Source: Escherichia coli (GTDB lineage Bacteria; Pseudomonadota; Gammaproteobacteria; Enterobacterales; Enterobacteriaceae). Taken from it: DNA of 64,000 nucleotides. The notes under the pieces were generated by a model. It was not told the DNA's origin, did not search any database, and saw only the letters and a list, made by a program, of their open reading frames with translations. Below, piece after piece: positions 17,014 to 49,224 of this stretch (its first letter is position 1; every line of letters begins with the position of its first letter). The stretch lies in NCBI RefSeq assembly GCF_030384885.1, contig NZ_CP128613.1. One strand, written 5' to 3'. A program made the translations under genes and the position numbers.

Positions 17014-17970
17014 ATGAACCCGATTGCAGTTACCCTACTCACCGGTTTTTTAGGCGCAGGCAAAACCACCCTGCTGCGCCATATTCTTAATGAACAGCAC
17101 GGCTACAAAATTGCCGTGATTGAAAACGAATTCGGCGAAGTCTCCGTTGATGATCAACTGATTGGCGACCGCGCCACGCAGATCAAAACGCTGACCAACG
17201 GCTGCATCTGTTGTTCGCGCTCCAACGAGCTGGAGGACGCGCTACTCGACCTGCTGGATAATCTCGACAAGGGCAATATTCAGTTCGACCGTCTGGTCAT
17301 TGAATGCACAGGCATGGCCGATCCCGGCCCGATTATTCAGACCTTTTTCTCCCATGAGATTTTATGCCAGCGTTACCTGCTGGACGGCGTGATTGCGCTG
17401 GTGGATGCGGTACATGCCGATGAGCAGATGAACCAGTTCACCATCGCCCAGTCACAGGTTGGCTACGCCGACCGCATTCTGCTGACCAAAACCGACGTCG
17501 CAGGCGAAGCAGAAAAACTGCGTGAACGCCTGGCGCGCATCAACGCCCGCGCACCGGTCTACACCGTCACCCACGGCGACATCGATCTGGGCCTGCTGTT
17601 CAACACCAACGGTTTTATGCTGGAAGAAAACGTCGTCAGCACCAAACCACGTTTCCACTTTATCGCGGATAAACAAAACGATATTTCGTCGATTGTGGTG
17701 GAACTGGATTACCCGGTAGATATCAGCGAAGTTTCCCGCGTGATGGAAAACCTGCTGCTGGAGTCGGCGGATAAACTGCTACGTTACAAAGGGATGCTGT
17801 GGATTGACGGCGAACCTAATCGCCTGTTGTTCCAGGGCGTCCAGCGCCTCTACAGCGCCGACTGGGACCGCCCGTGGGGCGATGAAAAACCGCATAGCAC
17901 TATGGTGTTTATCGGGATTCAGCTGCCGGAGGATGAGATTCGGGCAGCGTTTGCGGGGTTGAGGAAGTAA
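17014..17970 (+). CDS. yjiA: GTPase YjiA (COG0523 / CobW-like G3E metallochaperone family)
   Basis: 318 aa from ATG preceded by GGAGAG; P-loop GFLGAGKTT and GCICCS metal-binding motif; the track ORF starts further upstream and overlaps yjiX. Confidence 0.92.
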   Translation: MNPIAVTLLTGFLGAGKTTLLRHILNEQHGYKIAVIENEFGEVSVDDQLIGDRATQIKTLTNGCICCSRSNELEDALLDLLDNLDKGNIQFDRLVIECTGMADPGPIIQTFFSHEILCQRYLLDGVIALVDAVHADEQMNQFTIAQSQVGYADRILLTKTDVAGEAEKLRERLARINARAPVYTVTHGDIDLGLLFNTNGFMLEENVVSTKPRFHFIADKQNDISSIVVELDYPVDISEVSRVMENLLLESADKLLRYKGMLWIDGEPNRLLFQGVQRLYSADWDRPWGDEKPHSTMVFIGIQLPEDEIRAAFAGLRK

Positions 17971-17978
17971 GGGGTTAT

Positions 17979-18009
17979 GGGCCGGATAAGGCGCAGCCGC
18001 ATCCGGCCT
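17979..18009. repeat. REP element between yjiA and mrr
   Basis: GCCGGATAAGGCGCAGCCGCATCCGGC, a typical E. coli REP palindrome. Confidence 0.6.
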
Positions 18010-18015
18010 GATATT

Positions 18016-18930
18016 TCACTCAAAATAGTCCATATCCAGTTTCGGCACCTTCAACAAACGTGAAGAAACCCCTACTTCGTTTTCGATCATTAAGTGCACC
18101 AGGCGTTCCCCATCAACCAACACCATACCCTCGACGGATTGGGCAAAGTCACGCGCCTGAGAAGTAAATCCAGAAGTGGTAATAAACACCCCACGTTTCG
18201 CTTTTTGCCCAGCCAGTGCGCCGTAAAATGCCTGTAATTCTGGCCTGCCTACAGTATTCTGCCAACGTTTTGCCTGAACATAAACTTTCTCCAGGCCAAG
18301 TTTATCAAGCGATATCACACCATCGATGCCACCATCTCCAGTACCGCCAACACGCTGCAAATCATCACGGTGGCCGCCATACCCCAGGCGATGCAAAACA
18401 TCCAGAACAATGACTTCAAAGCGCGAAGGAGAAACCTGCAATAAGTTTTCCAGAACCTCATCAGCCACCGCATCACGAAGCTCTTTTAGCGCCTGATCTA
18501 ACCGATCGTCCGGGCTGCTCTTTGCAAGTTCTTCATGATCGGGAGAGTCGGCTTTCGGATCTAAATCGACGGCATCCGGCCGTGACTTAAGTTTGACATT
18601 CACAAAAGCGAAGGCCAGATGGTTCGTCTCCTGCTCCGTCATTGGCTGGGGATGAGACGCAACCCAGTCAAAACCCGCAGGAGTCAGGCACCATTTGCCA
18701 CGCGACAAACTTTGCGACAACCCGGCACGTTTTAAACGGTCATGCGCCCAGCCTGCACGATTTTTATAAACAAGTTGTCCGCTGGTAATGACTTTCGCTC
18801 GCTGGCTGTCATCCAGTCCTAATGCATCCGCGGCAGCCTCATGAACATCACGCGCGGCTGCACCTTCCGGTTTTGTTGCCAGATAACGCAGAACAGGTTC
18901 AATAAATTTGTCATAGGTAGGAACCGTCAT
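18016..18930 (-). CDS. mrr: Mrr modification-dependent restriction endonuclease
   Basis: 304-aa ORF recognised as Mrr (MTVPTYDKFIEPVLRYL...); N-terminal winged helix and C-terminal Mrr nuclease domain. Confidence 0.92.
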   Translation of the reverse strand: MTVPTYDKFIEPVLRYLATKPEGAAARDVHEAAADALGLDDSQRAKVITSGQLVYKNRAGWAHDRLKRAGLSQSLSRGKWCLTPAGFDWVASHPQPMTEQETNHLAFAFVNVKLKSRPDAVDLDPKADSPDHEELAKSSPDDRLDQALKELRDAVADEVLENLLQVSPSRFEVIVLDVLHRLGYGGHRDDLQRVGGTGDGGIDGVISLDKLGLEKVYVQAKRWQNTVGRPELQAFYGALAGQKAKRGVFITTSGFTSQARDFAQSVEGMVLVDGERLVHLMIENEVGVSSRLLKVPKLDMDYFE

Positions 18931-19117
18931 AGTACATCCTTGCAGAATCAGGTAGATGTTTTTCGGCTACTATAACACTACCAAAATAGACGAACACGTT
19001 AGAAATGAGTCAGTTGCTGTGACCGTGGTCATTGCCCGGAAAGGTACAGAAAGCTAAGATGAGATGTTATGGGCCTTAAATATTTGGACAGGCCCGCACA
19101 GCAATGGATTAATAACA

Positions 19118-22100
19118 ATGATGAATAAATCCAATTTTGAATTCCTGAAGGGCGTCAACGACTTCACTTATGCCATCGCCTGTGCGGCGGAAAATAACTA
19201 CCCGGATGATCCCAACACGACGCTGATTAAAATGCGTATGTTTGGCGAAGCCACAGCGAAACATCTTGGTCTGTTACTCAACATCCCCCCTTGTGAGAAT
19301 CAACACGATCTCCTGCGCGAACTCGGCAAAATCGCCTTCGTTGATGACAACATCCTCTCTGTATTTCACAAATTACGCCGCATTGGTAACCAGGCGGTGC
19401 ACGAATATCATAACGATCTCGACGATGCCCAGATGTGCCTGCGGCTCGGGTTCCGCCTGGCTGTCTGGTACTACCGTCTGGTCACCAAAGATTATGACTT
19501 CCCGGTGCCGGTGTTTGTGTTGCCGGAACGTGGTGAAAACCTCTATCACCAGGAAGTGCTGACGCTAAAACAACAGCTTGAACAGCAGGCGCGAGAAAAA
19601 GCGCAGACTCAGGCGGAAGTGGAAGCGCAACAGCAGAAGCTGGTTGCCCTGAACGGCTATATCGCCATTCTGGAAGGCAAGCAGCAGGAAACCGAAGCGC
19701 AAACCCTGGCTCGCCTTGCGGCACTGGAAGCACAGCTCGCCGAGAAGAACGCGGAACTGGCAAAACAGACCGAACAGGAACGTAAGGCTTACCACAAAGA
19801 AATTACCGATCAGGCCATCAAGCGCACACTCAACCTTAGCGAAGAAGAGAGTCGCTTCCTGATTGACGCGCAACTGCGTAAAGCAGGCTGGCAGGCCGAC
19901 AGCAAAACCCTGCGCTTCTCCAAAGGCGCACGCCCTGAACCCGGCGTCAATAAAGCCATTGCTGAATGGCCGACCGGCAAAGATGAAACGGGTAATCAGG
20001 GCTTTGCGGATTATGTGCTGTTTGTCGGCCTCAAACCCATCGCGGTGGTAGAGGCGAAACGTAAAAATATCGACGTTCCCGGCAAGCTCAATGAGTCTTA
20101 TCGCTACAGCAAATGCTTCGATAATGGCTTCCTGCGGGAAACCTTGCTTGAGCACTACTCACCGGATGAAGTGCATGAAGCGGTGCCGGAGTATGAAACC
20201 AGCTGGCAGGACACCAGCGGCCAACAACGGTTTAAAATCCCCTTCTGCTACTCGACCAACGGGCGCGAATACCGCGCAGCAATGAAAACTAAAAGCGGCA
20301 TCTGGTATCGCGACGTGCGTGATACCCGTAATATGTCGAAAGCCTTACCCGAGTGGCATCGCCCGGAAGAGCTGCTGGAAATGCTCGGCAGTGAACCGCA
20401 AAAACAGAATCAGTGGTTTGCCGATAACCCTGGCATGAGCGAGCTGGGCCTGCGTTATTATCAGGAAGATGCCGTCCGCGCGGTTGAAAAGGCAATCGTC
20501 AAGGGTCAACAAGAGATCCTGCTGGCGATGGCGACCGGTACCGGTAAAACCCGTACGGCAATCGCCATGATGTTCCGCCTGATCCAGTCCCAACGTTTTA
20601 AACGCATTCTCTTCCTTGTGGATCGCCGTTCTCTTGGCGAGCAGGCGCTGGGGGCGTTTGAAGATACGCGTATTAACGGCGACACCTTCAACAGCATTTT
20701 CGACATTAAAGGTCTGACGGATAAATTCCCGGAAGACAGCACCAAAATTCACGTTGCCACCGTACAGTCGCTGGTGAAACGCACCCTGCAATCAGATGAA
20801 CCAATGCCGGTGGCCCGTTACGACTGTATCGTCGTTGACGAAGCGCATCGCGGCTATATTCTCGATAAAGAGCAGACCGAAGGCGAGCTGCAGTTCCGCA
20901 GCCAGCTGGATTACGTCTCTGCCTACCGTCGCATTCTCGATCACTTCGATGCGGTAAAAATCGCCCTCACCGCCACCCCGGCGCTGCATACGGTGCAGAT
21001 TTTCGGCGAGCCGGTTTACCGTTATACCTACCGTACCGCGGTTATCGACGGTTTTCTGATCGACCAGGATCCGCCGATCCAAATCACCACCCGCAACGCC
21101 CAGGAGGGAGTTTATCTCGCCAAAGGCGAGCAGGTTGAGCGCATCAGCCCGCAGGGGGAAGTGATCAACGACACCCTGGAAGACGATCAGGATTTTGAGG
21201 TCGCCGACTTTAACCGTGGCCTGGTGATCCCGGCGTTTAACCGCGCCGTCTGTAACGAACTCACCAACTACCTTGACCCGACCGGGTTACAAAAAACGCT
21301 GGTCTTCTGCGTCACTAATGCTCATGCCGATATGGTGGTGGAAGAGCTGCGTGCCGCGTTCAAGAAAAAGTATCCGCAACTGGAGCACGACGCGATCATC
21401 AAGATCACTGGTGATGCCGATAAAGACGCGCGCAAAGTGCAGACCATGATCACCCGCTTCAATAAAGAGCGGCTGCCCAATATCGTGGTAACCGTCGACC
21501 TGCTGACGACCGGCGTCGATATTCCGTCGATCTGTAATATCGTGTTCCTGCGTAAAGTACGCAGCCGCATTCTGTACGAACAGATGAAAGGCCGCGCCAC
21601 GCGCTTATGCCCGGAGGTGAATAAAACCAGCTTTAAGATTTTTGACTGTGTCGATATCTACAGCACGCTGGAGAGCGTCGACACCATGCGTCCGGTGGTG
21701 GTGCGTCCGAAGGTGGAACTGCAAACGCTGGTCAACGAAATTACCGATTCAGAAACCTATAAAATCACCGAAGCGGATGGCCGCAGTTTTGCCGAGCACA
21801 GCCATGAACAACTGGTGGCGAAGCTCCAGCGCATCATCGGCCTGGCCACGTTTAACCGTGACCGCAGCGAAACGATAGATAAACAGGTGCGTCGTCTGGA
21901 TGAGCTATGCCAGGACGCGGCGGGCGTGAACTTTAACGGCTTCGCCTCGCGCCTGCGTGAAAAAGGGCCGCACTGGAGCGCCGAAGTCTTTAACAAACTG
22001 CCTGGCTTTATCGCCCGTCTGGAAAAGCTGAAAACGGACATCAACAACCTGAATGATGCGCCGATCTTCCTCGATATCGACGATGAAGTGGTGAGTGTAA

Positions 22101-22630
22101 AATCGCTGTACGGTGATTACGACACGCCGCAGGATTTCCTCGAAGCCTTTGACTCGCTGGTGCAACGTTCCCCGAACGCGCAACCGGCATTGCAGGCAGT
22201 TATTAATCGCCCGCGCGATCTCACCCGTAAAGGGCTGGTCGAGCTACAGGAGTGGTTTGACCGCCAGCACTTTGAGGAATCTTCCCTGCGCAAAGCATGG
22301 AAAGAGACGCGCAATGAAGATATCGCCGCCCGGCTGATTGGTCATATTCGCCGCGCTGCGGTGGGCGATGCGCTGAAACCGTTTGAGGAACGTGTCGATC
22401 ACGCGCTGACGCGTATCAAGGGCGAAAACGACTGGAGCAGCGAGCAATTAAGCTGGCTCGATCGTTTAGCGCAGGCGCTGAAAGAGAAAGTGGTGCTCGA
22501 CGACGATGTCTTCAAAACCGGCAATTTCCACCGTCGCGGCGGGAAGGCGATGCTGCAAAGAACCTTTGACGATAATCTCGACAGCCTGCTCGATAAATTC
22601 AGCGATTATATCTGGGACGAACTGGCCTGA
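19118..22630 (+). CDS. hsdR: Type I restriction enzyme R subunit (EcoKI-family, type IA)
   Basis: 1170 aa from ATG-ATG (MMNKSNFEFLKG...); SF2 helicase motifs (GTGKT, DEAH); the track ORF extends 18 codons upstream to ATG 19064. Confidence 0.9.
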   Translation: MMNKSNFEFLKGVNDFTYAIACAAENNYPDDPNTTLIKMRMFGEATAKHLGLLLNIPPCENQHDLLRELGKIAFVDDNILSVFHKLRRIGNQAVHEYHNDLDDAQMCLRLGFRLAVWYYRLVTKDYDFPVPVFVLPERGENLYHQEVLTLKQQLEQQAREKAQTQAEVEAQQQKLVALNGYIAILEGKQQETEAQTLARLAALEAQLAEKNAELAKQTEQERKAYHKEITDQAIKRTLNLSEEESRFLIDAQLRKAGWQADSKTLRFSKGARPEPGVNKAIAEWPTGKDETGNQGFADYVLFVGLKPIAVVEAKRKNIDVPGKLNESYRYSKCFDNGFLRETLLEHYSPDEVHEAVPEYETSWQDTSGQQRFKIPFCYSTNGREYRAAMKTKSGIWYRDVRDTRNMSKALPEWHRPEELLEMLGSEPQKQNQWFADNPGMSELGLRYYQEDAVRAVEKAIVKGQQEILLAMATGTGKTRTAIAMMFRLIQSQRFKRILFLVDRRSLGEQALGAFEDTRINGDTFNSIFDIKGLTDKFPEDSTKIHVATVQSLVKRTLQSDEPMPVARYDCIVVDEAHRGYILDKEQTEGELQFRSQLDYVSAYRRILDHFDAVKIALTATPALHTVQIFGEPVYRYTYRTAVIDGFLIDQDPPIQITTRNAQEGVYLAKGEQVERISPQGEVINDTLEDDQDFEVADFNRGLVIPAFNRAVCNELTNYLDPTGLQKTLVFCVTNAHADMVVEELRAAFKKKYPQLEHDAIIKITGDADKDARKVQTMITRFNKERLPNIVVTVDLLTTGVDIPSICNIVFLRKVRSRILYEQMKGRATRLCPEVNKTSFKIFDCVDIYSTLESVDTMRPVVVRPKVELQTLVNEITDSETYKITEADGRSFAEHSHEQLVAKLQRIIGLATFNRDRSETIDKQVRRLDELCQDAAGVNFNGFASRLREKGPHWSAEVFNKLPGFIARLEKLKTDINNLNDAPIFLDIDDEVVSVKSLYGDYDTPQDFLEAFDSLVQRSPNAQPALQAVINRPRDLTRKGLVELQEWFDRQHFEESSLRKAWKETRNEDIAARLIGHIRRAAVGDALKPFEERVDHALTRIKGENDWSSEQLSWLDRLAQALKEKVVLDDDVFKTGNFHRRGGKAMLQRTFDDNLDSLLDKFSDYIWDELA

Positions 22631-22830
22631 CACGTATACACTTCATCCTTCAGGCTGCCTCTGCGTTGGCTGCGCTCGTTCACCCCGGTCACGTACTTCT
22701 GTACGCTCCCGGGGATTCACTCACTTGCCGCCTTGATGCAACCTGAATGATTTTGTGTATATTACCCTCGGCAATTTCTTCTTCTGCGGCCCGATGAATT
22801 TGGGCCGCTGCTTAATTTACGGAACTCACA

Positions 22831-24420
22831 ATGAACAATAACGATCTGGTCGCGAAGCTGTGGAAGCTGTGCGACAACCTGCGCGATGGCGGCGTTTCCT
22901 ATCAAAACTACGTCAATGAACTCGCCTCGCTGCTGTTTTTGAAAATGTGTAAAGAAACCGGACAGGAAGCGGAATACCTGCCGGAAGGCTACCGCTGGGA
23001 TGACCTGAAATCCCGTATCGGCCAGGAGCAGTTGCAGTTCTACCGTAACCTGCTGGTACATCTGGGCGCCGACAATCAAAAGCTGGTGCAGGCAGTGTTC
23101 CAGAACGTCAACACCACCATTACCCAGCCGAAACAGTTGACCGAGCTGGTCAGCAATATGGATTCACTGGACTGGTACAACGGCGCGCACGGTAAGTCGC
23201 GCGATGACTTCGGCGATATGTACGAAGGGCTGTTGCAGAAGAACGCGAATGAAACCAAGTCTGGCGCGGGCCAGTACTTCACCCCGCGTCCGCTGATTAA
23301 AACCATTATTCATCTGCTGAAACCGCAGCCGCGTGAAGTGGTGCAGGACCCGGCGGCAGGTACGGCGGGCTTTTTGATTGAAGCCGACCGCTATGTTAAG
23401 TCGCAAACTAATGATCTGGACGACCTTGATGGCGACACGCAGGATTTCCAGATCCACCGCGCGTTTATCGGCCTCGAACTGGTGCCCGGCACCCGTCGTC
23501 TGGCACTGATGAACTGCCTGCTGCACGATATTGAAGGCAACCTCGACCACGGCGGCGCAATCCGTCTGGGCAACACCCTGGGCAGCGACGGTGAAAACCT
23601 GCCGAAAGCGCATATTGTCGCCACTAACCCGCCGTTTGGCAGCGCCGCAGGCACCAACATTACCCGCACCTTTGTTCACCCGACCAGCAACAAACAGTTG
23701 TGCTTTATGCAGCATATTATCGAAACGCTGCATCCCGGCGGTCGTGCGGCGGTCGTGGTGCCGGATAACGTACTGTTTGAAGGCGGCAAAGGCACCGACA
23801 TCCGTCGTGACCTGATGGATAAGTGTCATCTGCACACCATTCTGCGTCTGCCGACCGGTATTTTTTACGCGCAGGGCGTGAAAACCAACGTGCTGTTCTT
23901 TACCAAAGGGACGGTGGCGAATCCGAATCAGGATAAGAACTGTACCGACGACGTGTGGGTGTACGACCTGCGTACCAATATGCCGAGCTTCGGCAAGCGC
24001 ACGCCGTTTACCGACGAGCATTTGCAGCCGTTTGAGCGCGTGTATGGCGAAGACCCGCACGGTTTAAGCCCGCGCACTGAAGGGGAATGGAGTTTTAACG
24101 CCGAAGAGACGGAAGTTGCCGACAGCGAAGAGAACAAAAACACCGATCAGCATCTGGCCACCAGCCGCTGGCGCAAGTTCAGCCGCGAGTGGATCCGCAC
24201 CGTGAAATCCGATTCGCTGGATATCTCCTGGCTGAAAGATAAAGACAGCATCGACGCCGACAGCCTGCCGGAGCCGGATGTGTTAGCGGCAGAAGCGATG
24301 GGTGAACTGGTACAGGCATTGGGTGAACTGGATGCGCTGATGCGTGAACTGGGGGCGAGCGATGAGGCGGATGCACAGCGTCAGTTGCTGGAAGAAGCGT
24401 TTGGTGGGGTGAAAGAATGA
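22831..24420 (+). CDS. hsdM: Type I restriction-modification N6-adenine DNA methyltransferase M subunit
   Basis: 529-aa ORF (MNNNDLVAKLWKLCDNLRDGG...) with the NPPF catalytic motif; recognised as EcoKI-type HsdM. Confidence 0.93.
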   Translation: MNNNDLVAKLWKLCDNLRDGGVSYQNYVNELASLLFLKMCKETGQEAEYLPEGYRWDDLKSRIGQEQLQFYRNLLVHLGADNQKLVQAVFQNVNTTITQPKQLTELVSNMDSLDWYNGAHGKSRDDFGDMYEGLLQKNANETKSGAGQYFTPRPLIKTIIHLLKPQPREVVQDPAAGTAGFLIEADRYVKSQTNDLDDLDGDTQDFQIHRAFIGLELVPGTRRLALMNCLLHDIEGNLDHGGAIRLGNTLGSDGENLPKAHIVATNPPFGSAAGTNITRTFVHPTSNKQLCFMQHIIETLHPGGRAAVVVPDNVLFEGGKGTDIRRDLMDKCHLHTILRLPTGIFYAQGVKTNVLFFTKGTVANPNQDKNCTDDVWVYDLRTNMPSFGKRTPFTDEHLQPFERVYGEDPHGLSPRTEGEWSFNAEETEVADSEENKNTDQHLATSRWRKFSREWIRTVKSDSLDISWLKDKDSIDADSLPEPDVLAAEAMGELVQALGELDALMRELGASDEADAQRQLLEEAFGGVKE

Positions 24421-25805
24421 GTTTCAACTCAACATCAAAAGAATTAATTGAGCAAAATATCAATGGGTTACTTTCAAGCCATGAGAGCTGGTTACGTATT
24501 CCAATGGATTCCGTAGCAAACATCACAAACGGTTTTGCTTTTAAGTCGGCAGAATTTAATAATCGTAAAGATGGTGTACCATTAATTAGAATTCGTGATG
24601 TTCTTAAAGGTAGTACATCGACTTATTACTCGGGGCAAATTCCTGAGGGATATTGGGTATATCCCGAAGACTTAATCGTGGGAATGGATGGTGATTTTAA
24701 TACAACTATATGGCGCTCGGAGCCCGCTCTGTTAAATCAACGAGTATGTAAAATCGAAGTTCAGGAAGACAAATACAATAAAAGATTTTTCTATCATGCC
24801 TTACCAGGATATTTATCCGCAATCAATGCAAATACGTCCTCGGTTACTGTAAAGCATCTTTCTTCCAGGACACTTCAAGATACCCTACTTCCGTTGCCAC
24901 CACTTGCCGAACAAAAAATCATCGCTGAAAAACTCGATACGCTGCTGGCGCAGGTAAACAGCACCAAAGCACGTCTTGAGCAAATCCCACAAAACCTGAA
25001 ACGTTTTCGTCAGGCGGTGCTTCATGTTGCAGTGAGCGGGAAATTAACTGAAAAATGGCGATTAGAAAATGCAACTTTAGAAAACTCATACGAATGGAAG
25101 GTGCAATCTTTATCTGATCTTGGTGTTTTAGCTCGAGGTAAATCTAAACATCGACCTAGAAACGATCCTCGCCTATTTGGGGATAAGTATCCATTTATTC
25201 AAACAGGTGAAGTTGCCAATAGTTCAGGAAGAATTAAAAGAGCAAATAAATTTTATAGTGAGTTTGGTTTATCACAAAGCAAGCTATTTCCAAAAGATAC
25301 CTTATGTATAACTATTGCTGCCAACATTGCGGATACAGCCATATTAGAGATTGAGGCATGTTTCCCGGACAGTGTCGTTGGTTTCATTTCTGATAAAGAT
25401 AAATCTCATGTATCCTTTGTGAAGTATCTAATTGATGTTAACAAAGATAATCTTGAAGCATTTGCACCAGCTACAGCACAAAAAAATATTAACTTAAAGG
25501 TTTTAAACGAACTTAAACTTCCTATTCCTGATATTAAAGAACAAGCCGAAATCGTTCGCCGCGTCGAGCAACTCTTCGCCTACGCCGACACCATAGAAAA
25601 ACAGGTCAACAACGCCCTGGCCCGCGTCAACAACCTGACGCAATCCATCCTGGCAAAAGCGTTCCGTGGTGAACTCACCGCCCAGTGGCGGGCCGAAAAC
25701 CCGGATTTGATCAGCGGAGAAAACAGCGCCGCCGCGTTGCTGGAAAAAATCAAAGCTGAACGCGCAGCCAGCGGGGGTAAAAAAGCCTCACGTAAAAAAT
25801 CCTGA
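24417..25805 (+). CDS. hsdS: Type I restriction-modification specificity subunit; EcoKI-family scaffold with non-K-12 target-recognition domains
   Basis: 462-aa ORF; ATG overlaps the hsdM stop (ATGA); central and C-terminal conserved regions (LPPLAEQKIIAEKLDTLLAQV..., EQAEIVRRVEQLFAYADTIEKQ...) match the EcoKI family as I recall it, but the two variable regions do not, and they are AT-rich. Confidence 0.9.
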   Translation: MSFNSTSKELIEQNINGLLSSHESWLRIPMDSVANITNGFAFKSAEFNNRKDGVPLIRIRDVLKGSTSTYYSGQIPEGYWVYPEDLIVGMDGDFNTTIWRSEPALLNQRVCKIEVQEDKYNKRFFYHALPGYLSAINANTSSVTVKHLSSRTLQDTLLPLPPLAEQKIIAEKLDTLLAQVNSTKARLEQIPQNLKRFRQAVLHVAVSGKLTEKWRLENATLENSYEWKVQSLSDLGVLARGKSKHRPRNDPRLFGDKYPFIQTGEVANSSGRIKRANKFYSEFGLSQSKLFPKDTLCITIAANIADTAILEIEACFPDSVVGFISDKDKSHVSFVKYLIDVNKDNLEAFAPATAQKNINLKVLNELKLPIPDIKEQAEIVRRVEQLFAYADTIEKQVNNALARVNNLTQSILAKAFRGELTAQWRAENPDLISGENSAAALLEKIKAERAASGGKKASRKKS

Positions 25806-25818
25806 ACATTATTTTCTG

Positions 25819-25842
25819 GCGCACCTTTCCGGTGCGCTTTTT
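25819..25842 (+). terminator. Rho-independent terminator of the hsdMS operon
   Basis: GCGCACC-TTTCC-GGTGCGC followed by TTTTT. Confidence 0.65.
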
Positions 25843-25939
25843 ATTATTTCACGCCAATCATAACCCACATAAATATATTTAAATCATTCCAGAAATTGCC
25901 CATTTTATTCTATTTTTAGCTGGACTTTCCCCATATTTA

Positions 25940-25955
25940 CTGATGATATATCCAG
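25940..25955. promoter_or_regulatory. Candidate LexA (SOS) box upstream of symE
   Basis: CTGATGATATATCCAG fits CTG-N10-CAG with an AT-rich centre; symE is known to be SOS-induced. Confidence 0.55.
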
Positions 25956-25959
25956 GTAT

Positions 25960-26045
25960 TTAGCGCGGTGCGGATGTGCGCCAACACACCCGCACCGCTA
26001 ATCACAATCCCTATTTCTAAGGAATAGTAATCATGACTGACACGC
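25960..26045 (-). ncRNA. symR: Approximate position of SymR antisense sRNA (overlaps symE 5-prime UTR and start codon)
   Basis: Placed from established knowledge of the symE/symR locus, not from a sequence signal I can delimit exactly. Confidence 0.35.
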
Positions 26046-26374
26046 ATTCTATTGCACAACCGTTCGAAGCAGAAGTCTCCCCGGCAAATAACCGTCAATT
26101 AACCGTGAGTTATGCGAGTCGCTACCCGGATTACAGCCGTATTCCCGCCATCACCCTGAAAGGTCAGTGGCTGGAAGCCGCCGGTTTTGCCACCGGCACG
26201 GCGGTAGATGTCAAAGTGATGGAAGGCTGTATTGTCCTCACCGCCCAACCACCCGCCCCCGAAGAGAGCGAACTGATGCAGTCACTGCGCCAGGTGTGCA
26301 AACTGTCAGCGCGTAAACAAAAGCAGGTGAAGGAGTTTATTGGGGTGATTGCCGGTAAACAGAAAGTCGCGTAA
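26033..26374 (+). CDS. symE: SymE, SOS-induced toxin-like protein (AbrB-fold, type I TA-like module)
   Basis: 113-aa ORF ([38 protein letters not shown]...) recognised as SymE. Confidence 0.92.
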
Positions 26375-26535
26375 CAGCGTTTACTCCCGGTTAACCACCG
26401 GGAGCCTTCCACTGACTCAATAGAAACTTTCCCCCTCAGTAAATATTTACCAGTCTGATTTTGCAGTAAAAATCTATTGTTTCAGTACGTTGCGAAAGCG
26501 ATAATAGAGGCTTAGCAATGAGGAAGGCATATCTT

Positions 26536-27915
26536 ATGGAATCTATTCAACCCTGGATTGAAAAATTTATTAAGCAAGCACAGCAACAACGTTCGCAATC
26601 CACTAAAGATTATCCAACGTCTTACCGTAACCTGCGAGTAAAATTGAGTTTCGGTTATGGTAATTTTACGTCTATTCCCTGGTTTGCATTTCTTGGAGAA
26701 GGTCAGGAAGCTTCTAACGGTATATATCCCGTTATTCTCTATTATAAAGATTTTGATGAGTTGGTTTTGGCTTATGGTATAAGCGACACGAATGAACCAC
26801 ATGCCCAATGGCAGTTCTCTTCAGACATACCTAAAACAATCGCAGAGTATTTCCAGGCAACTTCAGGTGTATATCCTAAAAAATACGGACAGTCCTATTA
26901 CGCCTGTTCCCAAAAAGTCTCACAGGGTCTTGATTATACCCGGTTTGCCTCCATGCTGGACAACATAATCAACGACTATAAATTAATATTTAATTCTGGC
27001 AAGAGTGTTATTCCACCTATGTCAAAAACTGAATCATACTGTCTGGAAGATGCGTTAAATGATTTGTTTATCCCTGAAACCACGATAGAGACGATACTCA
27101 AACGATTAACCATCAAAAAAAATATTATCCTCCAGGGGCCGCCCGGCGTTGGAAAAACCTTTGTTGCACGCCGTCTGGCTTACTTGCTGACAGGGGAAAA
27201 GGCTCCGCAACGCGTCAATATGGTTCAGTTCCATCAATCTTATAGCTATGAGGATTTTATACAGGGCTATCGTCCGAATGGTGTCGGCTTCCGACGTAAA
27301 GACGGTATATTTTACAATTTTTGTCAGCAAGCTAAAGAGCAGCCAGAGAAAAAGTATGTTTTTATTATAGATGAAATCAATCGTGCCAATCTCAGTAAAG
27401 TATTTGGCGAAGTGATGATGTTAATGGAACATGATAAACGAGGTGAAAACTGGTCTGTTCCCTTAACCTACTCCGAAAACGATGAAGAACGATTCTATGT
27501 TCCGGAGAATGTTTATATTATCGGTTTAATGAATACTGCCGATCGCTCTCTGGCCGTTGTTGATTATGCCCTGCGCAGACGATTTTCTTTCATAGATATT
27601 GAGCCAGGTTTTGATACGCCACAGTTCCGGAATTTTTTACTGAATAAAAAAGCAGAACCTTCATTTGTTGAATCTTTATGCCAAACAATGAACGAGTTAA
27701 ACCAGGAAATCAGCAAAGAGGCCACTATCCTTGGGAAAGGATTCCGCATTGGGCATAGTTACTTCTGCTCCGGGTTGGAAGATGGCACATCTCCTGATAC
27801 GCAATGGCTTAAGGAAATTGTGATGACGGATATCGCCCCTTTACTCGAAGAATATTTCTTTGATGATCCCTATAAACAACAGATATGGACCGACAAATTA
27901 TTAGGTGACTCATAG
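26536..27915 (+). CDS. mcrB: McrB, GTPase (AAA+) subunit of the 5-methylcytosine-dependent restriction enzyme McrBC
   Basis: 459 aa from ATG with AGGAAGG upstream (MESIQPWIEKF...); P-loop GPPGVGKT; AT-rich composition. Confidence 0.93.
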   Translation: MESIQPWIEKFIKQAQQQRSQSTKDYPTSYRNLRVKLSFGYGNFTSIPWFAFLGEGQEASNGIYPVILYYKDFDELVLAYGISDTNEPHAQWQFSSDIPKTIAEYFQATSGVYPKKYGQSYYACSQKVSQGLDYTRFASMLDNIINDYKLIFNSGKSVIPPMSKTESYCLEDALNDLFIPETTIETILKRLTIKKNIILQGPPGVGKTFVARRLAYLLTGEKAPQRVNMVQFHQSYSYEDFIQGYRPNGVGFRRKDGIFYNFCQQAKEQPEKKYVFIIDEINRANLSKVFGEVMMLMEHDKRGENWSVPLTYSENDEERFYVPENVYIIGLMNTADRSLAVVDYALRRRFSFIDIEPGFDTPQFRNFLLNKKAEPSFVESLCQTMNELNQEISKEATILGKGFRIGHSYFCSGLEDGTSPDTQWLKEIVMTDIAPLLEEYFFDDPYKQQIWTDKLLGDS

Positions 27916-28961
27916 TGGAACAGCCCGTGATACCTGTCCGTAATATCTATTACATGCTTACCTATGCATGGGGTTATTTACAGGAAATTAAGCAGGCCGA
28001 CCTTGAAGCCATTCCCGGTAACAATCTTCTTGATATCCTGGGGTATGTATTAAATAAAGGGGTTTTACAGCTTTCACGCCGAGGGCTTGAGCTTGATTAC
28101 AATCCTAATACAGAAATCATTCCTGGCATCAAAGGGCGAATAGAGTTTGCTAAAACAATACGCGGCTTCCATCTTAATCATGGGAAAACCGTCAGTACGT
28201 TTGATATGCTTAATGAAGACACGCTGGCTAACCGAATTATAAAAAGCACATTAGCCATGTTAATTAAGCATGAAAAGTTAAACTCAGCCATCAGAGATGA
28301 AGCTCGTTCACTTTATAGAAAATTACCGGGCATTAGCACTCTTCATTTAACTCCACAGCATTTCAGCTATCTGAATGGCGGAAAAAATACGCGTTATTAT
28401 AAATTCGTTATAAGTGTCTGCAAGTTCATCGTCAATAATTCTATTCCAGGTCAAAACAAAGGACACTACCGTTTCTATGATTTTGAAAGAAACGAAAAAG
28501 AGATGTCATTACTTTATCAAAAGTTTCTTTATGAATTTTGCCGCCGTGAATTAACGTCTGCAAACACAACCCGCTCTTATTTAAAATGGGATGCATCGAG
28601 CATATCGGATCAGTCACTTAATTTGTTACCTCGAATGGAAACTGACATCACCATTCGCTCATCAGAAAAAATACTTATCGTTGACGCCAAATACTATAAG
28701 AGCATTTTTTCACGACGAATGGGCTCAGAAAAATTTCATTCTCAAAATCTTTATCAACTGATGAATTACTTATGGTCGTTAAAGCCTGAAAATGGCGAAA
28801 ACATAGGGGGCTTATTAATATACCCCCACGTAGATACCGCAGTGAAACATCGTTATAAAATTAATGGCTTCGATATTGGCTTGTGTACCGTCAATTTAGG
28901 TCAGGAATGGCCGTGTATACATCAAGAATTACTCGACATTTTCGGTGAATATCTCAAATAA
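27915..28961 (+). CDS. mcrC: McrC, nuclease subunit of McrBC
   Basis: 348-aa ORF with GTG start overlapping the mcrB stop (MEQPVIPVRNIYYMLTY...); recognised as McrC. Confidence 0.93.
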   Translation: MEQPVIPVRNIYYMLTYAWGYLQEIKQADLEAIPGNNLLDILGYVLNKGVLQLSRRGLELDYNPNTEIIPGIKGRIEFAKTIRGFHLNHGKTVSTFDMLNEDTLANRIIKSTLAMLIKHEKLNSAIRDEARSLYRKLPGISTLHLTPQHFSYLNGGKNTRYYKFVISVCKFIVNNSIPGQNKGHYRFYDFERNEKEMSLLYQKFLYEFCRRELTSANTTRSYLKWDASSISDQSLNLLPRMETDITIRSSEKILIVDAKYYKSIFSRRMGSEKFHSQNLYQLMNYLWSLKPENGENIGGLLIYPHVDTAVKHRYKINGFDIGLCTVNLGQEWPCIHQELLDIFGEYLK

Positions 28962-28983
28962 GCGGTAAGTTTTATAGAAAATA

Positions 28984-29010
28984 CCGCTCCCGACACCACA
29001 TCGGGAGCGG
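28984..29010 (-). terminator. Hairpin between convergent mcrC and the downstream minus-strand ORF pair
   Basis: CCGCTCCCGA-N7-TCGGGAGCGG; the T-rich flank is on the minus-strand side. Confidence 0.6.
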
Positions 29011-29017
29011 CTCATCA

Positions 29018-29353
29018 TCAGGAGGCGATCACCTCCACCAGCACATCCGTTGCCCAGCTCTCTTCACTGTTGACCACATTCCCTTCCTGACAAGCTTGAT
29101 CCATTTTGACTAACTGGAAAGAAACGTCATCGCGGAAATCAAAGTAATGCCATTGCGATGAAAAGTTGATGCGCCAGTAGCCCATCCCCTGATCGAAGCG
29201 GATCTTCAATACCTGACCATCCTCAAAAGTCACCGTCAGTTTACGATGGTGAGGGATATCGCGCGGCGAGTCGAACACCGTCAGTTCTACCGGCCTGCCC
29301 AGCGCAGCAGCAAACCACTGATCAGCGAAATCCTGAAAATCCGCTATGCTCAT
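29018..29353 (-). CDS. Hypothetical protein (111 aa), translationally coupled to the upstream 277-aa ORF
   Basis: ORF-track frame; its ATG overlaps the stop of the upstream ORF (ATGA); no family recognised by eye; may be a remnant of the yjiT/yjiV-type gene found at this position in K-12. Confidence 0.5.
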
Positions 29354-30183
29354 CCAGTCATGGAAAGGCCGGTTAGCAGTCCATTCAAAAAATGCGTTCC
29401 TGTTTCATCATCTAACGGTATTGGAAACTCGCTTCGCCAGGTAGGGTGAACCTTATCAAGCTGTTGTACTGGTTCTTTGTGATTTATTAGGTTGTGAGTA
29501 AGTACTAAGGAATTGAGGTTATCAGCCATATGACTGATAAGTTCTACAGAGGTATCTTCGCTAAAAACAGTAGGCAGCGCTGATTTTTCTATGACAGCTC
29601 TTGCCAGCGAAAGGGCTGAAAAACCTGACTGCTTTGCTTGCTCATATTGTCCAAGGATCCTGGAGAAAACAGCCAGAAAGCGACTGTCTGATTCTTTGAG
29701 TAGCCGGAAAGGTAAACCACCTTCACTGAATAATGTTCCGAGAAAATTGCGTCGTTCAGATTCATAAAATCGAATTGGGCGCAGCCAGTAATCTTCCATC
29801 CCTTTCGGTACGATAGTACCAAGCTCTGTGGCGGTGAATGAAATCCCTATTTTTTTATATATAGGGTCCCACGTCCATCCGCATTGCCGTTCATAATCCC
29901 TGCGGTACCACTCAGAGCAAAAAAGAACAAAACAGGCAGCAAAGTCCCTATTACATATATTAGATTGTGATTGACCGACTGCACGGAGTAGCTGCGTTAA
30001 TTGGGTATATTCATCATTGGTTGCATGATATTCATAAAGAGGACGGCCATCCGGTTGTCTCAACCCTCTAAGATTCACAAAGTTACTTAGCCAGGAAGTA
30101 CATTTTACCCATGAAATGTATTCTGATTGACCCAAAGCAAGCTCCTTAGAGATAAAAGATACAAAAACAAAACCCCACAACAT
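29350..30183 (-). CDS. Hypothetical protein (277 aa) in the mcrC-yjiS variable slot
   Basis: ORF-track frame; AT-rich relative to flanking core genes; no obvious Shine-Dalgarno; no family recognised by eye. Confidence 0.5.
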
Positions 30184-43661: not shown

Positions 43662-43871
43662 TTGATTTAATGAATTTAACTTTTCAGTACAGCACGTAAA
43701 ATAACTAAAACACACTTGTTCTTTGGAGGTGCTCAGCCACCGCCACTATTATTCATGGTTTAGCAAATTTACGGCTAATTCATTATTTCTGGTCATATTA
43801 TAGTCAGGATCGTTTTATACCTCCGTGCTAGAAAAAACACGTTTAATTCTGTTTTTTCACGGAAGGTCACT

Positions 43872-46800
43872 ATGGCTTCGACAAATGCGCAGCAAATAAA
43901 AAATAATGATCAAAACTCTTTATGCGGTCTGGGTGACAAAATACGCCGCCTGGCCGCCGGAGTTTGTTTATTCACACAATTTTTTTTCCCCGTCATCGCG
44001 ACGGCACAAAATGTGGTACACGCTAACCCGCAGTGAAGGTGTTCAGGATATCACTCTGTCTGACTGGACAGATAACGGGGATGGTAGCTACACACAGATG
44101 CTGACTGCAGGAACGACTTCAGGTTCAGTAACACTGACACCGCAACTTAACGGTGAGAGTGCGGTAAAAGAATCCATCGTCGTTAATATCGTCCCTGTTG
44201 TCTCATCCCGCGACCATTCTTCAATATCCATAGATAACATATTGTATTATGCCGGAGACGACATCAAAGTCAGGGTAGAACTGAAAGACGACAACAATAA
44301 ACCGGTTGAATATCAAGAAGACGCGTTGGTAAAAGCCGTCACTGTCGAGAACAGCAAACCAGGCGCCACGGTTGTCTGGCACGAAGAGCATCCGGGCGTT
44401 TATGCAGCGAATTATCCGGCCCATAAGCAAGGAGCAGCCCTGAGGGCACAACTTAGCCTTCACAACTGGAATACTCCTCTGCAATCGCATATTTATAATA
44501 TCGAAGCAAACCAGAATAAGGCTCACGTCGCCACATTATCCGCAACGAATAATGACGTTTACGCCGATAAAAAGACGTTTAATACCATCACTATTAACGT
44601 CACTGATGAGAGTGATAATCCCCTGAGAAATCATCAGGTCACCTTTAAGAATGAGAAAGGAAGCGCGGAATTTGTAGAACCGACGCAGCAAAATACTGAT
44701 GCACATGGTGTTGCCACAATCAACATGATAAGTCAGGTTGCGGAAGAAAATACGATTAGCGCTACGCTGCCAAATGGTTCTACTCAACGGGTAACTGCGA
44801 AATTTGTTAGCGATTCGAATACGCCAAAACTCAAACAACTGGTTGCCGCGCCAGATACCATTAGTGCTGGTAATAGCCAGGGTAGTACCCTGACCGCCAC
44901 CGTCACAGACTTTCATAACAACCCGTTAAAAGATATGAAAGTGAATTTTGTGGCACCAACTGACTCGCAACTGGACAACACGACCGCCACAACTGACCAG
45001 TCCGGGATTGCGCGGGTGCACCTGACCAGTTCAAAAGCAGGTAACTATACCGTCGATGCCTCGCTTGAGGCGGATAAAAATATTCACCAGTCGGTTACGG
45101 TTACCGTGGTCCCAAACAGGGAACAATCGGTAATTATTTTGAATGCCGGATCGGGCAGTACGATTGCTAACAATACAGATACCGTTACCCTGACTGCCAG
45201 TGTGAAAGATGTTTATGGACACTCACTACCGGATGAGGATGTGAAATTTACCTTGCCAGCATCTATGACAGGAAACTTCACGCTAAGTAGTGACACCGCT
45301 CGCACCGATTCAAACGGCAATGCCGTGGTCACATTGCGAGGCACAAAAGCGGGTGAGTTTACAGTGACGGCGACACTGAGCAGAAATAATACCAGTGCTA
45401 ATCAGCTAGTCTATTTTATTGGGGATACAAGCAGCGCGCAGCTCCAGCCGCTGACTGCCTCATTAAATACCATAGTTGCTGGCAACAGTACGGGGAGTAC
45501 CCTGACAGCAACGATCCTGGACGCTTACCAAAATCCGCTTAAAGACCAACAGGTCACTTTCCAGAGTAACGATGTCACACTAAGCGGAACCGAAGTCACC
45601 ACCAATACGCAGGGTCAAGCGACGGTAATAATGACCAGCAATATTGCCGGACAACATAACGTCGTGGTGAGCCGGAAAGCGCAATCATCCGATAATAAAA
45701 CGTTTAGTTTATCAGTGCTCCCGGATGAAAGTTCGGCGAAGATAATAAGTATAACCGGAGCCGAAAAAACGATAATGGTTGGCGAAAACATCACGCTACG
45801 AATACACGTACAGGATGCGTTTAATAACGTCATAGCCGGTCAACGCGTCAGATTAAGTGCGCTGCCAACCGCTAACATTACGATAGACGATACGGCTTAC
45901 ACCGATAATAACGGCTATGCGTACGTTAACCTTATCAGCACCCAGCCTGGGGTCTATCAGGTGACAGCAACGCTGGACAATAACAGTAGTCGTAAAGTTG
46001 ACGTGAGTGTGGCAAAGGGCAAACTCGAGTTAACATCATCGAAGCCAGAAACCACGGTCCATAACAGTGAAGGTATTACACTGACCGCAACGGCAAGAAA
46101 TATTCAGGGTGAATTGATGCCGGGGCAAATTATCACCTTTAGCGTAACACCTGATGGGGCAACGCTAAGCAATACAGGGGAAATCCTGACTGATCAGTCA
46201 GGTCAGGCCAAAGTGACGCTGACCAGTGACAAAGTCAATGTATATACCGTTACGGCCACAATGGGCAAAGACGTTCCCGTTCAGAGCCAGGTGACGGTTG
46301 CGGTTAAGGCTGATGCTACAACGGCACATGTTGTGAGTGTCGTGGCTTCTCCTGACACCATAATCGCCGACGGGGTTGATAGCAGCACCATCACTTCACG
46401 AGTAGAAGATGATTATGGATTCCCGGTTGAAGGTGTCGACGTTAGTTACAGCTTAGACACCAAAGGCAGCCCGGTGATTAATAATCCAACTACGCGTACC
46501 GATCAGTCCGGGCAAGTCACGGCGACAATAACAGGTACATTGGCAGAAGCTCTAATTGTCAATGTTCAGGTCCCTGGCACAGTCCACAAATCCGCAGCCA
46601 TTACATTGATTCCTGGTACGGCAGATGAAAGTAAATCAACATTGAAATCTAGCGTTAGCTCTTTTATGGCTGACTTCCAGGAGAGCGCGACACTTACGTT
46701 AATATTGCAAGACAAGTACGGTAACCCGATAGTGACGTCTGATCATCTGGAATTTGTCCAGTCAGGTGCCTACGTGAACCTCCTGAAGTTGAGCAATATT

Positions 46801-47538
46801 GATTACAGCCAAAGAAATTATGGCGAGTACACCGTCACTGTCACTGGCGGCGTAGAGGGCAGAGCGACTCTCATTCCTATGCTGAACGGTGTTCATCAAG
46901 CAAACTTAAGCATATCACTGGATCTTGTCCGCTCAATAAAAGACATGCACGGTCATGTAACAGTCAACAACCATACCTTCACAACGGCTACATTCCCCAG
47001 TGAAGGTTTTATAGGGGCGTACTACACACTTAATGATGACAACTTTGAAGCGGGTAAAACCGTTAGTGATTATATGTTCACAAGTTCACAGAGTTGGGTG
47101 TCTGTCGATGCTTCAGGTAAAGTTTCTTTCACAAATACCGGCGACCAAACTTCAGTCGTAATAAGCGCTGTTCCCAGACAAGGAGGTACAACCTACCAGA
47201 CATTAATTAAGCTGAAAGGCTGGTGGGTGAATCATGGGAATCAAACCAATATCTGGCTAACTGCCAATGCGTTCTGCAACGCGAAAAGTGATGGATATAA
47301 TCTTCCTGGCGTCGCACATTTAACGTCTGGCGAAAACAAACGCACGTTGGGATCGCTATATGGTGAGTGGGGGAACGTTGGGGAGTTTTCCAGTGATTCG
47401 CAATTTACCGCGGGTGCTTACTGGACCAATCAACAGGATGATTACAATAGACACGTCTATGTGCAGATGCTGACGGGCAGGATTGGAAGCGACGCAGATT
47501 CCAGCGCTCAACTAACTGCCTGCCGTAAATCACTTTAA
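43872..47538 (+). pseudogene. Inverse-autotransporter (intimin/invasin, YeeJ-like) adhesin remnant: leader fragment plus Big_1-repeat passenger with lectin-like C-terminus; translocator barrel missing
   Basis: A 54-codon frame from ATG 43872 encodes a YeeJ-like leader (MASTNAQQIKNNDQNSLCGLGDKIRRLAAGVCLF...) and stops at about 44034; a different frame (track ORF 43906-47538, 1210 aa) encodes repeated bacterial Ig-like domains; only about 245 bp separates yjiJ from this ORF, leaving no room for a LysM/beta-barrel domain. Confidence 0.55.
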
Positions 47539-47555
47539 TTTCTGAAGTAGTTATT

Positions 47556-47585
47556 AAAGGATACCCTTTTGCGAGGGTATCCTTT
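47556..47585. terminator. 12-bp-stem hairpin between the convergent invasin-like gene and kptA
   Basis: AAAGGATACCCT-N6-AGGGTATCCTTT. Confidence 0.55.
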
Positions 47586-47609
47586 CAGACTCATGACAAA
47601 AGCCAAATT

Positions 47610-47639
47610 GCCTGATGCGCTACGCTTATCAGGCTTACA
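47610..47639. repeat. REP-like palindrome
   Basis: GCCTGATGCGCTACGCTTATCAGGCTTAC. Confidence 0.5.
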
Positions 47640-47718
47640 CTATCTCTCTAATATATTGAATTTTTATGCTTTTGTAGGGAGCGCAAGGCGTTTATGCCGC
47701 ATCTGGCACGAGCAAACA

Positions 47719-48291
47719 TTAATCAGCTCTTTTCTTCGGGCACTCAAGAAACTCAACAGCAACCGTTGATGTCAGCCAGACCCCGTTTTCCGCTTGCCAG
47801 AAAGGGATGCCTCGTTTCGCCATTTCCTGTGCTTTGACGGTTAAAATAACCGGCAATCCGTGTCTTGCTCCCACTTTGCGTGCCGTTGCTTCATCAGCAG
47901 AGAGATGCACGTAATGACGCTCTCCTGGAATCAGCCCTTGTTTTTTTATCTCGTCAAGAAAGCGGCTTGCCGTACCGTGGTAGAGAAACTGTGGCGGTGT
48001 TTTTTCGGCAAAGGCAATGGCGACCTGCGAAGTCGAATGCCCCTGAACCGCGCGAATGCACCTACCATCACTGGAATAACTAAAACGCTTTTTATCGCTG
48101 GTGGCGACAACGGTATCCAGCAATGCACGGGTTAACCGCTTACCTGCTTTTTGTGCACAAAGTATGAGCTTATCAATATCCGCCCATCCTTCACGGTCAA
48201 GTACGATACCAATCGCCTCCGGTTTATGTCGGAGAATAAAACTTAAAAACTTGCTTGTATCCGCCAGCTCTTTTTCGTTGTACTTTGCCAT
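47719..48291 (-). CDS. kptA: RNA 2-prime-phosphotransferase KptA (Tpt1 family)
   Basis: 190-aa ORF from ATG ([28 protein letters not shown]...); recognised as KptA. Confidence 0.88.
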
Positions 48292-48540
48292 CGCGTTTTC
48301 GTCCCTGGATTTTCCGTTTTTATTTACTCACGTCATTGTCACTGAATTTATGAATTTTCTGCAACGAAATCCTTCGCAGCATCTTGTTCAAACAGCGTAA
48401 TTTTTCCGCTATGCAAAAAACGCATAGCCAGAAACATACTTGCATTTTCCCCATACCCATATGGCTGATAAGGTTTTTCAGCTCCAGGAATTTTCCTGGC
48501 TCAAGCAACACACAAACACAAAAAAACAATGGGGATTGTT

Positions 48541-49224
48541 ATGACACAACAAGGGGATGCTGTAGCCGGGGAGCTGGCGACAGAAAAAGTGGGCATTAAA
48601 GGGTATCTGGCTTTTTTTCTCACCATAATCTTTTTTTCCGGTGTTTTTTCCGGGACAGACAGCTGGTGGCGCGTTTTTGATTTTTCCGTTCTGAACGGAT
48701 CGTTTGGGCAACTGCCTGGTGCGAACGGAACCACCACCTCGTTTCGCGGAGCGGGTGGCGCGGGGGCTAAAGATGGCTTTCTCTTTGCGCTGGAGCTGGC
48801 ACCATCAGTCATTCTCTCTCTGGGGATTATTTCAATTACCGATGGTCTTGGTGGATTACGCGCCGCGCAGCAGTTAATGACACCTGTGCTAAAACCATTG
48901 TTGGGCATTCCAGGAATCTGCTCGCTGGCGCTGATCGCTAACTTGCAAAACACTGATGCCGCCGCCGGTATGACCAAAGAGCTGGCGCAGGAAGGTGAAA
49001 TTACCGAACGCGATAAAGTGATTTTCGCCGCATATCAAACCAGCGGTAGCGCCATCATCACCAACTACTTCTCTTCCGGCGTCGCGGTGTTTGCCTTTCT
49101 GGGGACGTCCGTAATCGTACCTTTAGCCGTCATCCTGGTATTTAAATTTGTCGGTGCCAATATTTTGCGCGTCTGGCTTAACTTTGAAGAACGTCGCAAC
49201 CCAACGCAAGGAGCGCAAGCATGA
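48541..49224 (+). CDS. yjiH: YjiH, nucleoside-recognition-domain inner-membrane protein
   Basis: 227 aa from the second ATG (MTQQGDAVAGELATEK...); start uncertain by 4 codons. Confidence 0.85.
   Translation: MTQQGDAVAGELATEKVGIKGYLAFFLTIIFFSGVFSGTDSWWRVFDFSVLNGSFGQLPGANGTTTSFRGAGGAGAKDGFLFALELAPSVILSLGIISITDGLGGLRAAQQLMTPVLKPLLGIPGICSLALIANLQNTDAAAGMTKELAQEGEITERDKVIFAAYQTSGSAIITNYFSSGVAVFAFLGTSVIVPLAVILVFKFVGANILRVWLNFEERRNPTQGAQA

Follow-up and report, generated by a model that had tools for sequence, protein, structure and literature searches.

In the 64,000-nucleotide stretch of Escherichia coli DNA analysed here (the window), the gene between yjiJ and kptA is, as judged by its sequence and its position, iatD, a known E. 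coli gene for an adhesin of the type Ve (inverse autotransporter) class, and it has very probably been turned into a lineage-specific, loss-of-function pseudogene by one recent internal deletion of 1,574 bp. The event is an ordinary one of a known kind, in a gene that was already known. We read the allele as a loss-of-function pseudogene because its leader and its passenger are out of frame with each other, and because any passenger product that might still be made would be without a barrel. The preliminary description of this DNA had proposed an internal deletion that removed the LysM and beta-barrel domains; alignment to an intact allele shows such a deletion and places its breakpoints to the base.

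Two overlapping open reading frames lie between yjiJ and kptA, just as first described: one of 54 codons at 43872-44036 and one of 1210 codons at 43906-47538, the long one in the +1 frame relative to the short one (Table 1). The long frame reaches upstream of the passenger since the leader's +1 frame happens to be open over 43906-44025, and the translation of this stretch (MIKTLYAVWVTKYAAWPPEF...) has no counterpart in intact IatD. The spacing of about 245 bp that had been given between yjiJ and the passenger is right if it is counted from the yjiJ stop (43661) to the first ATG of the long frame (43906), but the true passenger begins only at 44026. The gene order yjiJ-iatD-kptA is the same in 2013C-4282, O157:H7, LR-58-1 and MB52.

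Table 1. Features of the yjiJ-iatD-kptA region in the window.
Feature	Coordinates	Strand	Basis or remark
yjiJ (MFS transporter)	42483..43661	+	Left flank of the iatD locus; coordinates and annotation as in the colinear 2013C-4282 locus
iatD 5' remnant	43872..44036	+	Identical to nt 1-155 of intact iatD (2013C-4282)
Chance open stretch, +1 frame of the leader, non-native	43906..44025	+	Translation without counterpart in intact IatD
T8 homopolymer in the signal-peptide h-region, codons Phe-Phe-Phe	43980..43987	+	Wild-type state
Deletion junction	44025..44026	+	Two-piece alignment to the 2013C-4282 locus
Retained iatD passenger from codon 577 on: 5'-truncated Ig domain, then Big_1/Invasin_D3 array	44026..46899	+	Pfam
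Invasin D4-like domain, C-type-lectin-like cap, stop codon	46957..47538	+	Pfam; PDB 1CWV match
kptA (RNA 2'-phosphotransferase)	47719..48291	-	Conserved right flank; annotation of the colinear locus

The identity of the gene follows from its relatives at the same locus. When positions 43600-47700 were compared by megablast with 5,426 complete RefSeq E. coli genomes, 2013C-4282 matched at 99.9% identity in two pieces, which take up 5,675 bp of its genome against the 4,101 bp of the query, and the gene under the match is annotated as 'iatD: inverse autotransporter IatD'. This is the nearest intact allele, a gene of 5,241 bp (1746 aa) that also lies between yjiJ and kptA and that includes the barrel. 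The window product clusters at 90% with proteins named 'inverse autotransporter IatD', so that the locus, and also the high identity to the named protein wherever the two overlap, are those of an iatD orthologue. Among the NCBIfam models, none specific to IatD matched either the intact protein or the window product, and both proteins scored below the cut-off of the IatC, intimin, Ilp and YrIlm models; the name therefore rests on the RefSeq annotation and on the work of Goh et al. 2019 (mSphere, PMC6714894; EcSMS35_4876), in which iatD was named and characterised. According to that study, iatD measures 5,241 bp, occupies a conserved locus and was complete in 6% of 126 genomes, and its product consists of a signal sequence, a LysM domain, a beta-barrel and a Big_1 passenger with a predicted C-type lectin cap; full-length IatD expressed in K-12 is surface-exposed and promotes biofilm (PMC6714894). 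The earlier label of YeeJ-like named the right family, as iatD is a paralogue of YeeJ with a conserved locus of its own, but the gene is neither yeeJ nor fdeC.

For the mapping of the breakpoints, the intact 2013C-4282 locus (L001) was aligned against window positions 42100-49100. The alignment consists of two blocks, 42100-44026 corresponding to L001 1-1927 and 44025-49100 to L001 3500-8575, and apart from the gap between them the 7 kb differ by a single SNP, which lies outside iatD at 48460. What has been lost is L001 1928-3501 (CDS nt 156-1729), and with it codons 52/53-576; the lost segment starts just past the signal peptidase site that is predicted for the leader and extends over the first 40 residues of the Ig domain at aa 537-631. 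The breakpoints share a 2-nt microhomology, 'AA' (L001 1926-1927 and 3500-3501; window 44025-44026), and are situated within an imperfect direct repeat of about 19 nt, CACGCTAAACCCCAGATGA versus CACTGCAAACCCGCAGTGA. Both copies of the repeat contain AAACCC, where a crossover would remove 1,573 bp, while the window is one A shorter. As 1,574 bp is two more than a whole number of codons (3 x 524 + 2), the deletion breaks the reading frame; the frame would be lost with either length, and the frame break is thus a direct result of the deletion. The arrangement suggests replication slippage or illegitimate recombination between the imperfect-repeat sites that share the 'AA'.

An insertion sequence could also have been involved. 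The iatD gene of LR-58-1 carries an IS3-family element with a 3-bp target duplication at L001 3488-3490, only 10-12 bp upstream of the right breakpoint of the window (L001 3500-3502), and two other related strains have insertions in the gene, an IS3-family element near CDS nt 1505-1520 in MB52 and IS2 near CDS nt 3615 in MFDS1019527. On this ground the deletion might be put down to imprecise excision of an IS, or to a rearrangement beside one, near the right breakpoint, with the same loss of function. We consider such an origin unlikely. No IS sequence or IS end is left at the junction, and the LR-58-1 allele is 98.3-99.4% identical to L001 across the aligned pieces, compared with 99.9% for the window, which speaks for a separate insertion event. 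With three insertions in a 5.2-kb gene, the chance that one of them lands no further than about 12 bp from a given point is roughly 1-2%, which is not negligible. Given the lack of an IS remnant and the greater distance of the LR-58-1 allele, the proximity of its insertion to the breakpoint is probably a coincidence or the mark of a local hot spot. Whatever its origin, the deletion joins other lesions by which iatD has decayed in E. coli repeatedly and independently, namely these IS insertions and the frameshift of O157:H7 (one base added to a C-tract at CDS nt 178, labelled 'frameshifted' by PGAP). The pattern fits weak or niche-specific selection on IatD.

The segment that has been lost includes the export barrel of the adhesin. 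In the intact protein, Pfam places IAT_beta at aa 148-423 (E 2e-107) and a weak LysM match at aa 79-99 (E 0.41), both of them inside the deletion, and an Ig domain (Invasin_D3/Big_1) at aa 537-631, which is cut by it; the linker after the barrel and the first 40 residues of this Ig domain are deleted as well. The window product, searched in the 1175-aa version that starts at ATG 44011, gave seven strong Big_1 matches (E 2e-17 to 3e-13), further Invasin_D3 matches, the first of which is partial (model positions 46-95 of 98), one Invasin_D4 match (E 0.0017) and a weak Intimin_C match, and the last 312 aa of the long frame match residues 204-462 of Yersinia invasin (1CWV; E 1.1e-14). The Ig-like repeats and the lectin-like C-terminus reported for this gene from the letters alone are thereby borne out. 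No IAT_beta or LysM domain was found in the window product by Pfam. A barrel-encoding segment is not present elsewhere within the window either: a tblastn search with the deleted 526 aa in all six frames had a best E of 1.3, a chance match. Of the parts that make up a large inverse autotransporter, the allele therefore retains the Big_1 passenger with its lectin-like cap and lacks the 12-stranded IAT_beta barrel (PF11924) and the periplasmic LysM domain that the large members (YeeJ, IatC, IatD) typically have, and its Sec signal peptide, present at aa 1-51, is not in frame with the passenger, as the stop comes after 54 codons. The passenger itself is untouched. Residues 577-1746 show no difference from intact 2013C-4282 IatD (0 of 1170 aa), from which it follows that the deletion is recent.

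The leader is likewise that of the intact gene. The short frame has the native start, an extended signal peptide of 51 residues (MASTNAQ...NVVHA) and Asn-Pro-Gln across the junction, ending with TGA at 44034-44036; cleavage is predicted after NVVHA51 by the -3/-1 rule. The native start is preceded by a Shine-Dalgarno-like GGAAGG (-6.4 kcal/mol, in the top 5% of the local background), while the values for ATG 43906 (+1.1 kcal/mol) and ATG 44011 (-2.1 kcal/mol) are at background level. A search of 43600-44100 for consensus promoters turned up a single match; it falls within the leader frame and is no more than chance would give. Ribosomes that initiate at the native ATG would make only a signal-peptide remnant of 54 residues, and the 1170 passenger codons in the +1 frame would be left without a signal peptide, a good ribosome-binding site at the junction, or a barrel.

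Type Ve proteins are exported by threading the passenger through the barrel that the same polypeptide carries. Any passenger-only product, whether it arose by reinitiation, from an internal start or through rare slippage at the T tract, would by this mechanism stay inside the cell and form no surface adhesin, and since a type Ve passenger needs the barrel of its own polypeptide, surface display has presumably been lost. The judgement that the product is probably not exported, made earlier from the missing room for a barrel, agrees with what the type Ve mechanism would predict from the loss of the barrel together with the out-of-frame leader.

The passenger frame might nevertheless be imagined to serve a purpose by itself, for example as an intracellular Ig/lectin protein with its start at ATG 44011 or 44098. 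It is intact across 1170 codons, automatic gene calling gives it a product of 1175 aa, and the internal ATG 44098 has a strong Shine-Dalgarno-like sequence (-7.3 kcal/mol), from which a cytoplasmic fragment could be produced. However, intact alleles have the 44098 site just as well, the frame has no signal peptide and begins with a truncated Ig domain, and the deletion allele is confined to one clone. The open frame is also uninformative about selection, since the deletion is very recent: with zero substitutions since the event, selection has had no time to become visible. We regard a functional passenger-only protein as very unlikely.

A run of eight Ts had been pointed out inside the junction, at about 43978-43985, as a site that could mediate frame slippage and yield a phase-variable product. 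The run does exist in the leader, at 43980-43987. As a cause of the frame break it was considered and rejected, because intact alleles have the same eight Ts and the length of the deletion alone accounts for the shift. It is T8 in the window, in the intact 2013C-4282 allele, in the O157:H7 allele (L002) and in five independent deletion-allele contigs, which means that every copy of the deletion allele examined has the same tract, and among the sequences compared there is no variation in tract length that would toggle the frame. A second role has to be considered, in which slippage at the tract, during replication or transcription, would switch on a fusion of leader and passenger. Homopolymer slippage is a known switching mechanism in contingency loci, and a change from T8 to T7 or T10 opens a single frame that runs through from the native ATG to the native stop (1221 or 1222 codons), in which the first 38-39 residues of the leader are joined to the passenger frame. 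Still, a phase-variable gene is highly improbable. T8 is the in-frame, wild-type state of the intact alleles, so the tract has not evolved as a switch for the deletion allele, and an exact look-up among about 15 billion proteins returned none of the T6, T7, T9 and T10 products, a weak negative as it covers exact sequences only. The T7 and T10 fusions would also make poor exported proteins. Their h-region is cut to 12 residues and followed by SPSSRRHK, and the VHA cleavage site is lost; basic residues directly after the hydrophobic core, with no VHA site, would disfavour Sec export, and a fusion that did reach the periplasm would have no barrel for crossing the outer membrane. It is hard to credit a variant of the same idea in which rare loss of a T, from DNA or RNA, would give a 1221-aa fusion that resides in the inner membrane or periplasm and has taken up a new, non-adhesin role, making this a slippage-gated rather than a dead gene.

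A junction query against the 5,426 complete RefSeq E. coli genomes gave no single-piece match, and all 639 of those genomes that carry iatD have sequence between the two halves. By exact-sequence look-up, both the 54-aa product and the 1175-aa product (from ATG 44011) were found on at least 8-11 contigs, the carrier sequences being GCA_036346665.1 (a contig of 594,733 bp) and several unrelated Logan SRA (SRR) runs. The five loci that were retrieved have an identical 229-nt leader and junction, and for two of them the identity to the window is 100% across 6,165 bp. Going by these sequences, the allele is the mark of a single clone. Since the same junction occurs in separate sequencing runs and the breakpoints lie in unique sequence, an assembly artefact is for practical purposes excluded. 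It is true that genes with Ig repeats are prone to misassembly (discussed in PMC6714894), but a collapse of 1,574 bp that are really present is extremely unlikely here. Neither breakpoint lies in near-identical repeats, as the left one is in the part that encodes the signal peptide and the right one in the domain that directly follows barrel and linker; the two have only 2 nt of exact homology in common, and the junction is identical on the contigs named above, which come from independent runs and were assembled by two pipelines (NCBI and Logan).

Set against its relatives, the allele differs in what it has lost. It shares with intact IatD of 2013C-4282 the yjiJ-kptA locus, the start codon, the signal peptide, the Big_1 array and the lectin-like cap; without codons 52/53-576, and with leader and passenger out of frame, it should be unable to perform the surface display and biofilm function of the full-length protein. 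With YeeJ, intimin and Yersinia invasin it has in common the Big_1/Invasin_D3 repeats and the D4/C-type-lectin-like superdomain, but those proteins have an N-terminal IAT_beta barrel in the same polypeptide. A parallel in kind is the iatD pseudogene of O157:H7, the same gene at the same locus and also inactivated early in the coding sequence. That allele, about 91% identical (the window allele is 99.9% identical to 2013C-4282), keeps all domains at the DNA level, its lesion being a single inserted base, whereas the window allele has lost 1.57 kb.

Beyond correct annotation the finding is of little importance. The locus should be annotated as one iatD pseudogene instead of a 54-aa hypothetical protein and a 1175- or 1210-aa 'Ig-like domain protein' or 'adhesin/invasin'. 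Similarly, the clone should be scored as iatD-negative in adhesin or virulence typing, where a PCR on the passenger, or the mapping of reads to it, would score it as positive.

The window carries a second deletion at 29018-30183, its junction at ~29375. Compared with strain 2013C-4282, it lacks 8,528 bp (20846-29373 of the reference locus, L011), and at the junction, which bears a 'TA' microhomology, a DEAD/DEAH-box helicase gene of 6.3 kb, reduced to a 3' remnant, is fused to the 5' part of yjiT. This junction was found as a single piece in no complete RefSeq E. coli genome; two of these genomes have a different, smaller gap. The 8,528-bp deletion is private to the window's lineage, the second such deletion after that in iatD. 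Upstream of it, at 17900-29000, lie mrr, hsdR, hsdM, hsdS, symE, mcrB and mcrC, a gene content taken solely from colinear annotation, by which this "immigration control region" is predicted to be complete and to follow the 2013C-4282 pattern.

The iatD gene has been interrupted in other strains as well. In LR-58-1, an IS3-family element has inserted at a point corresponding to 3488-3490 of the intact 2013C-4282 locus (L001), with a 3-bp target duplication, and the right breakpoint of the window's iatD deletion is only 10-12 bp downstream of this insertion. Such closeness may reflect a hot spot or a coincidence. Two more close alleles (L009 and L010) have IS3-family or IS2 elements elsewhere in the gene. 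The LR-58-1 iatD also appears to be without ~30 bp of barrel-coding sequence relative to 2013C-4282 (L008 ~2050-2058 against L001 2303-2341), as far as overlapping BLAST blocks show.

The iatD pseudogene of E. coli O157:H7 H6437 (L002) has its frameshift in GCCCCCCCCTC, a C8 run at nt ~170-185 of the CDS; the intact allele has CCTCCCCCTC there. The lesion in the O157:H7 lineage is this C8 homopolymer, not the T8 tract of the signal-peptide region. The adjoining kptA of H6437 is annotated as frameshifted as well.

The pentapeptide-repeat protein matches the type III effector models PipB, PipB2 and SopA weakly, and is a putative EspX-type effector. Genomes with the same iatD allele do not agree on its length: the window and L003 encode 693 aa, GCA_036346665.1 encodes 690 aa, a difference that probably arises from the short-repeat region SATSATSATS / KIPxxPG.

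Location of the pentapeptide-repeat gene and of the IS element in LR-58-1 iatD
Feature	Position	Strand	Remark
Pentapeptide-repeat protein, 693 aa	39231-41312	+	weak matches to effector models
IS3-family element in iatD	E. coli LR-58-1, L008 3237-4496		window equivalent ~44015
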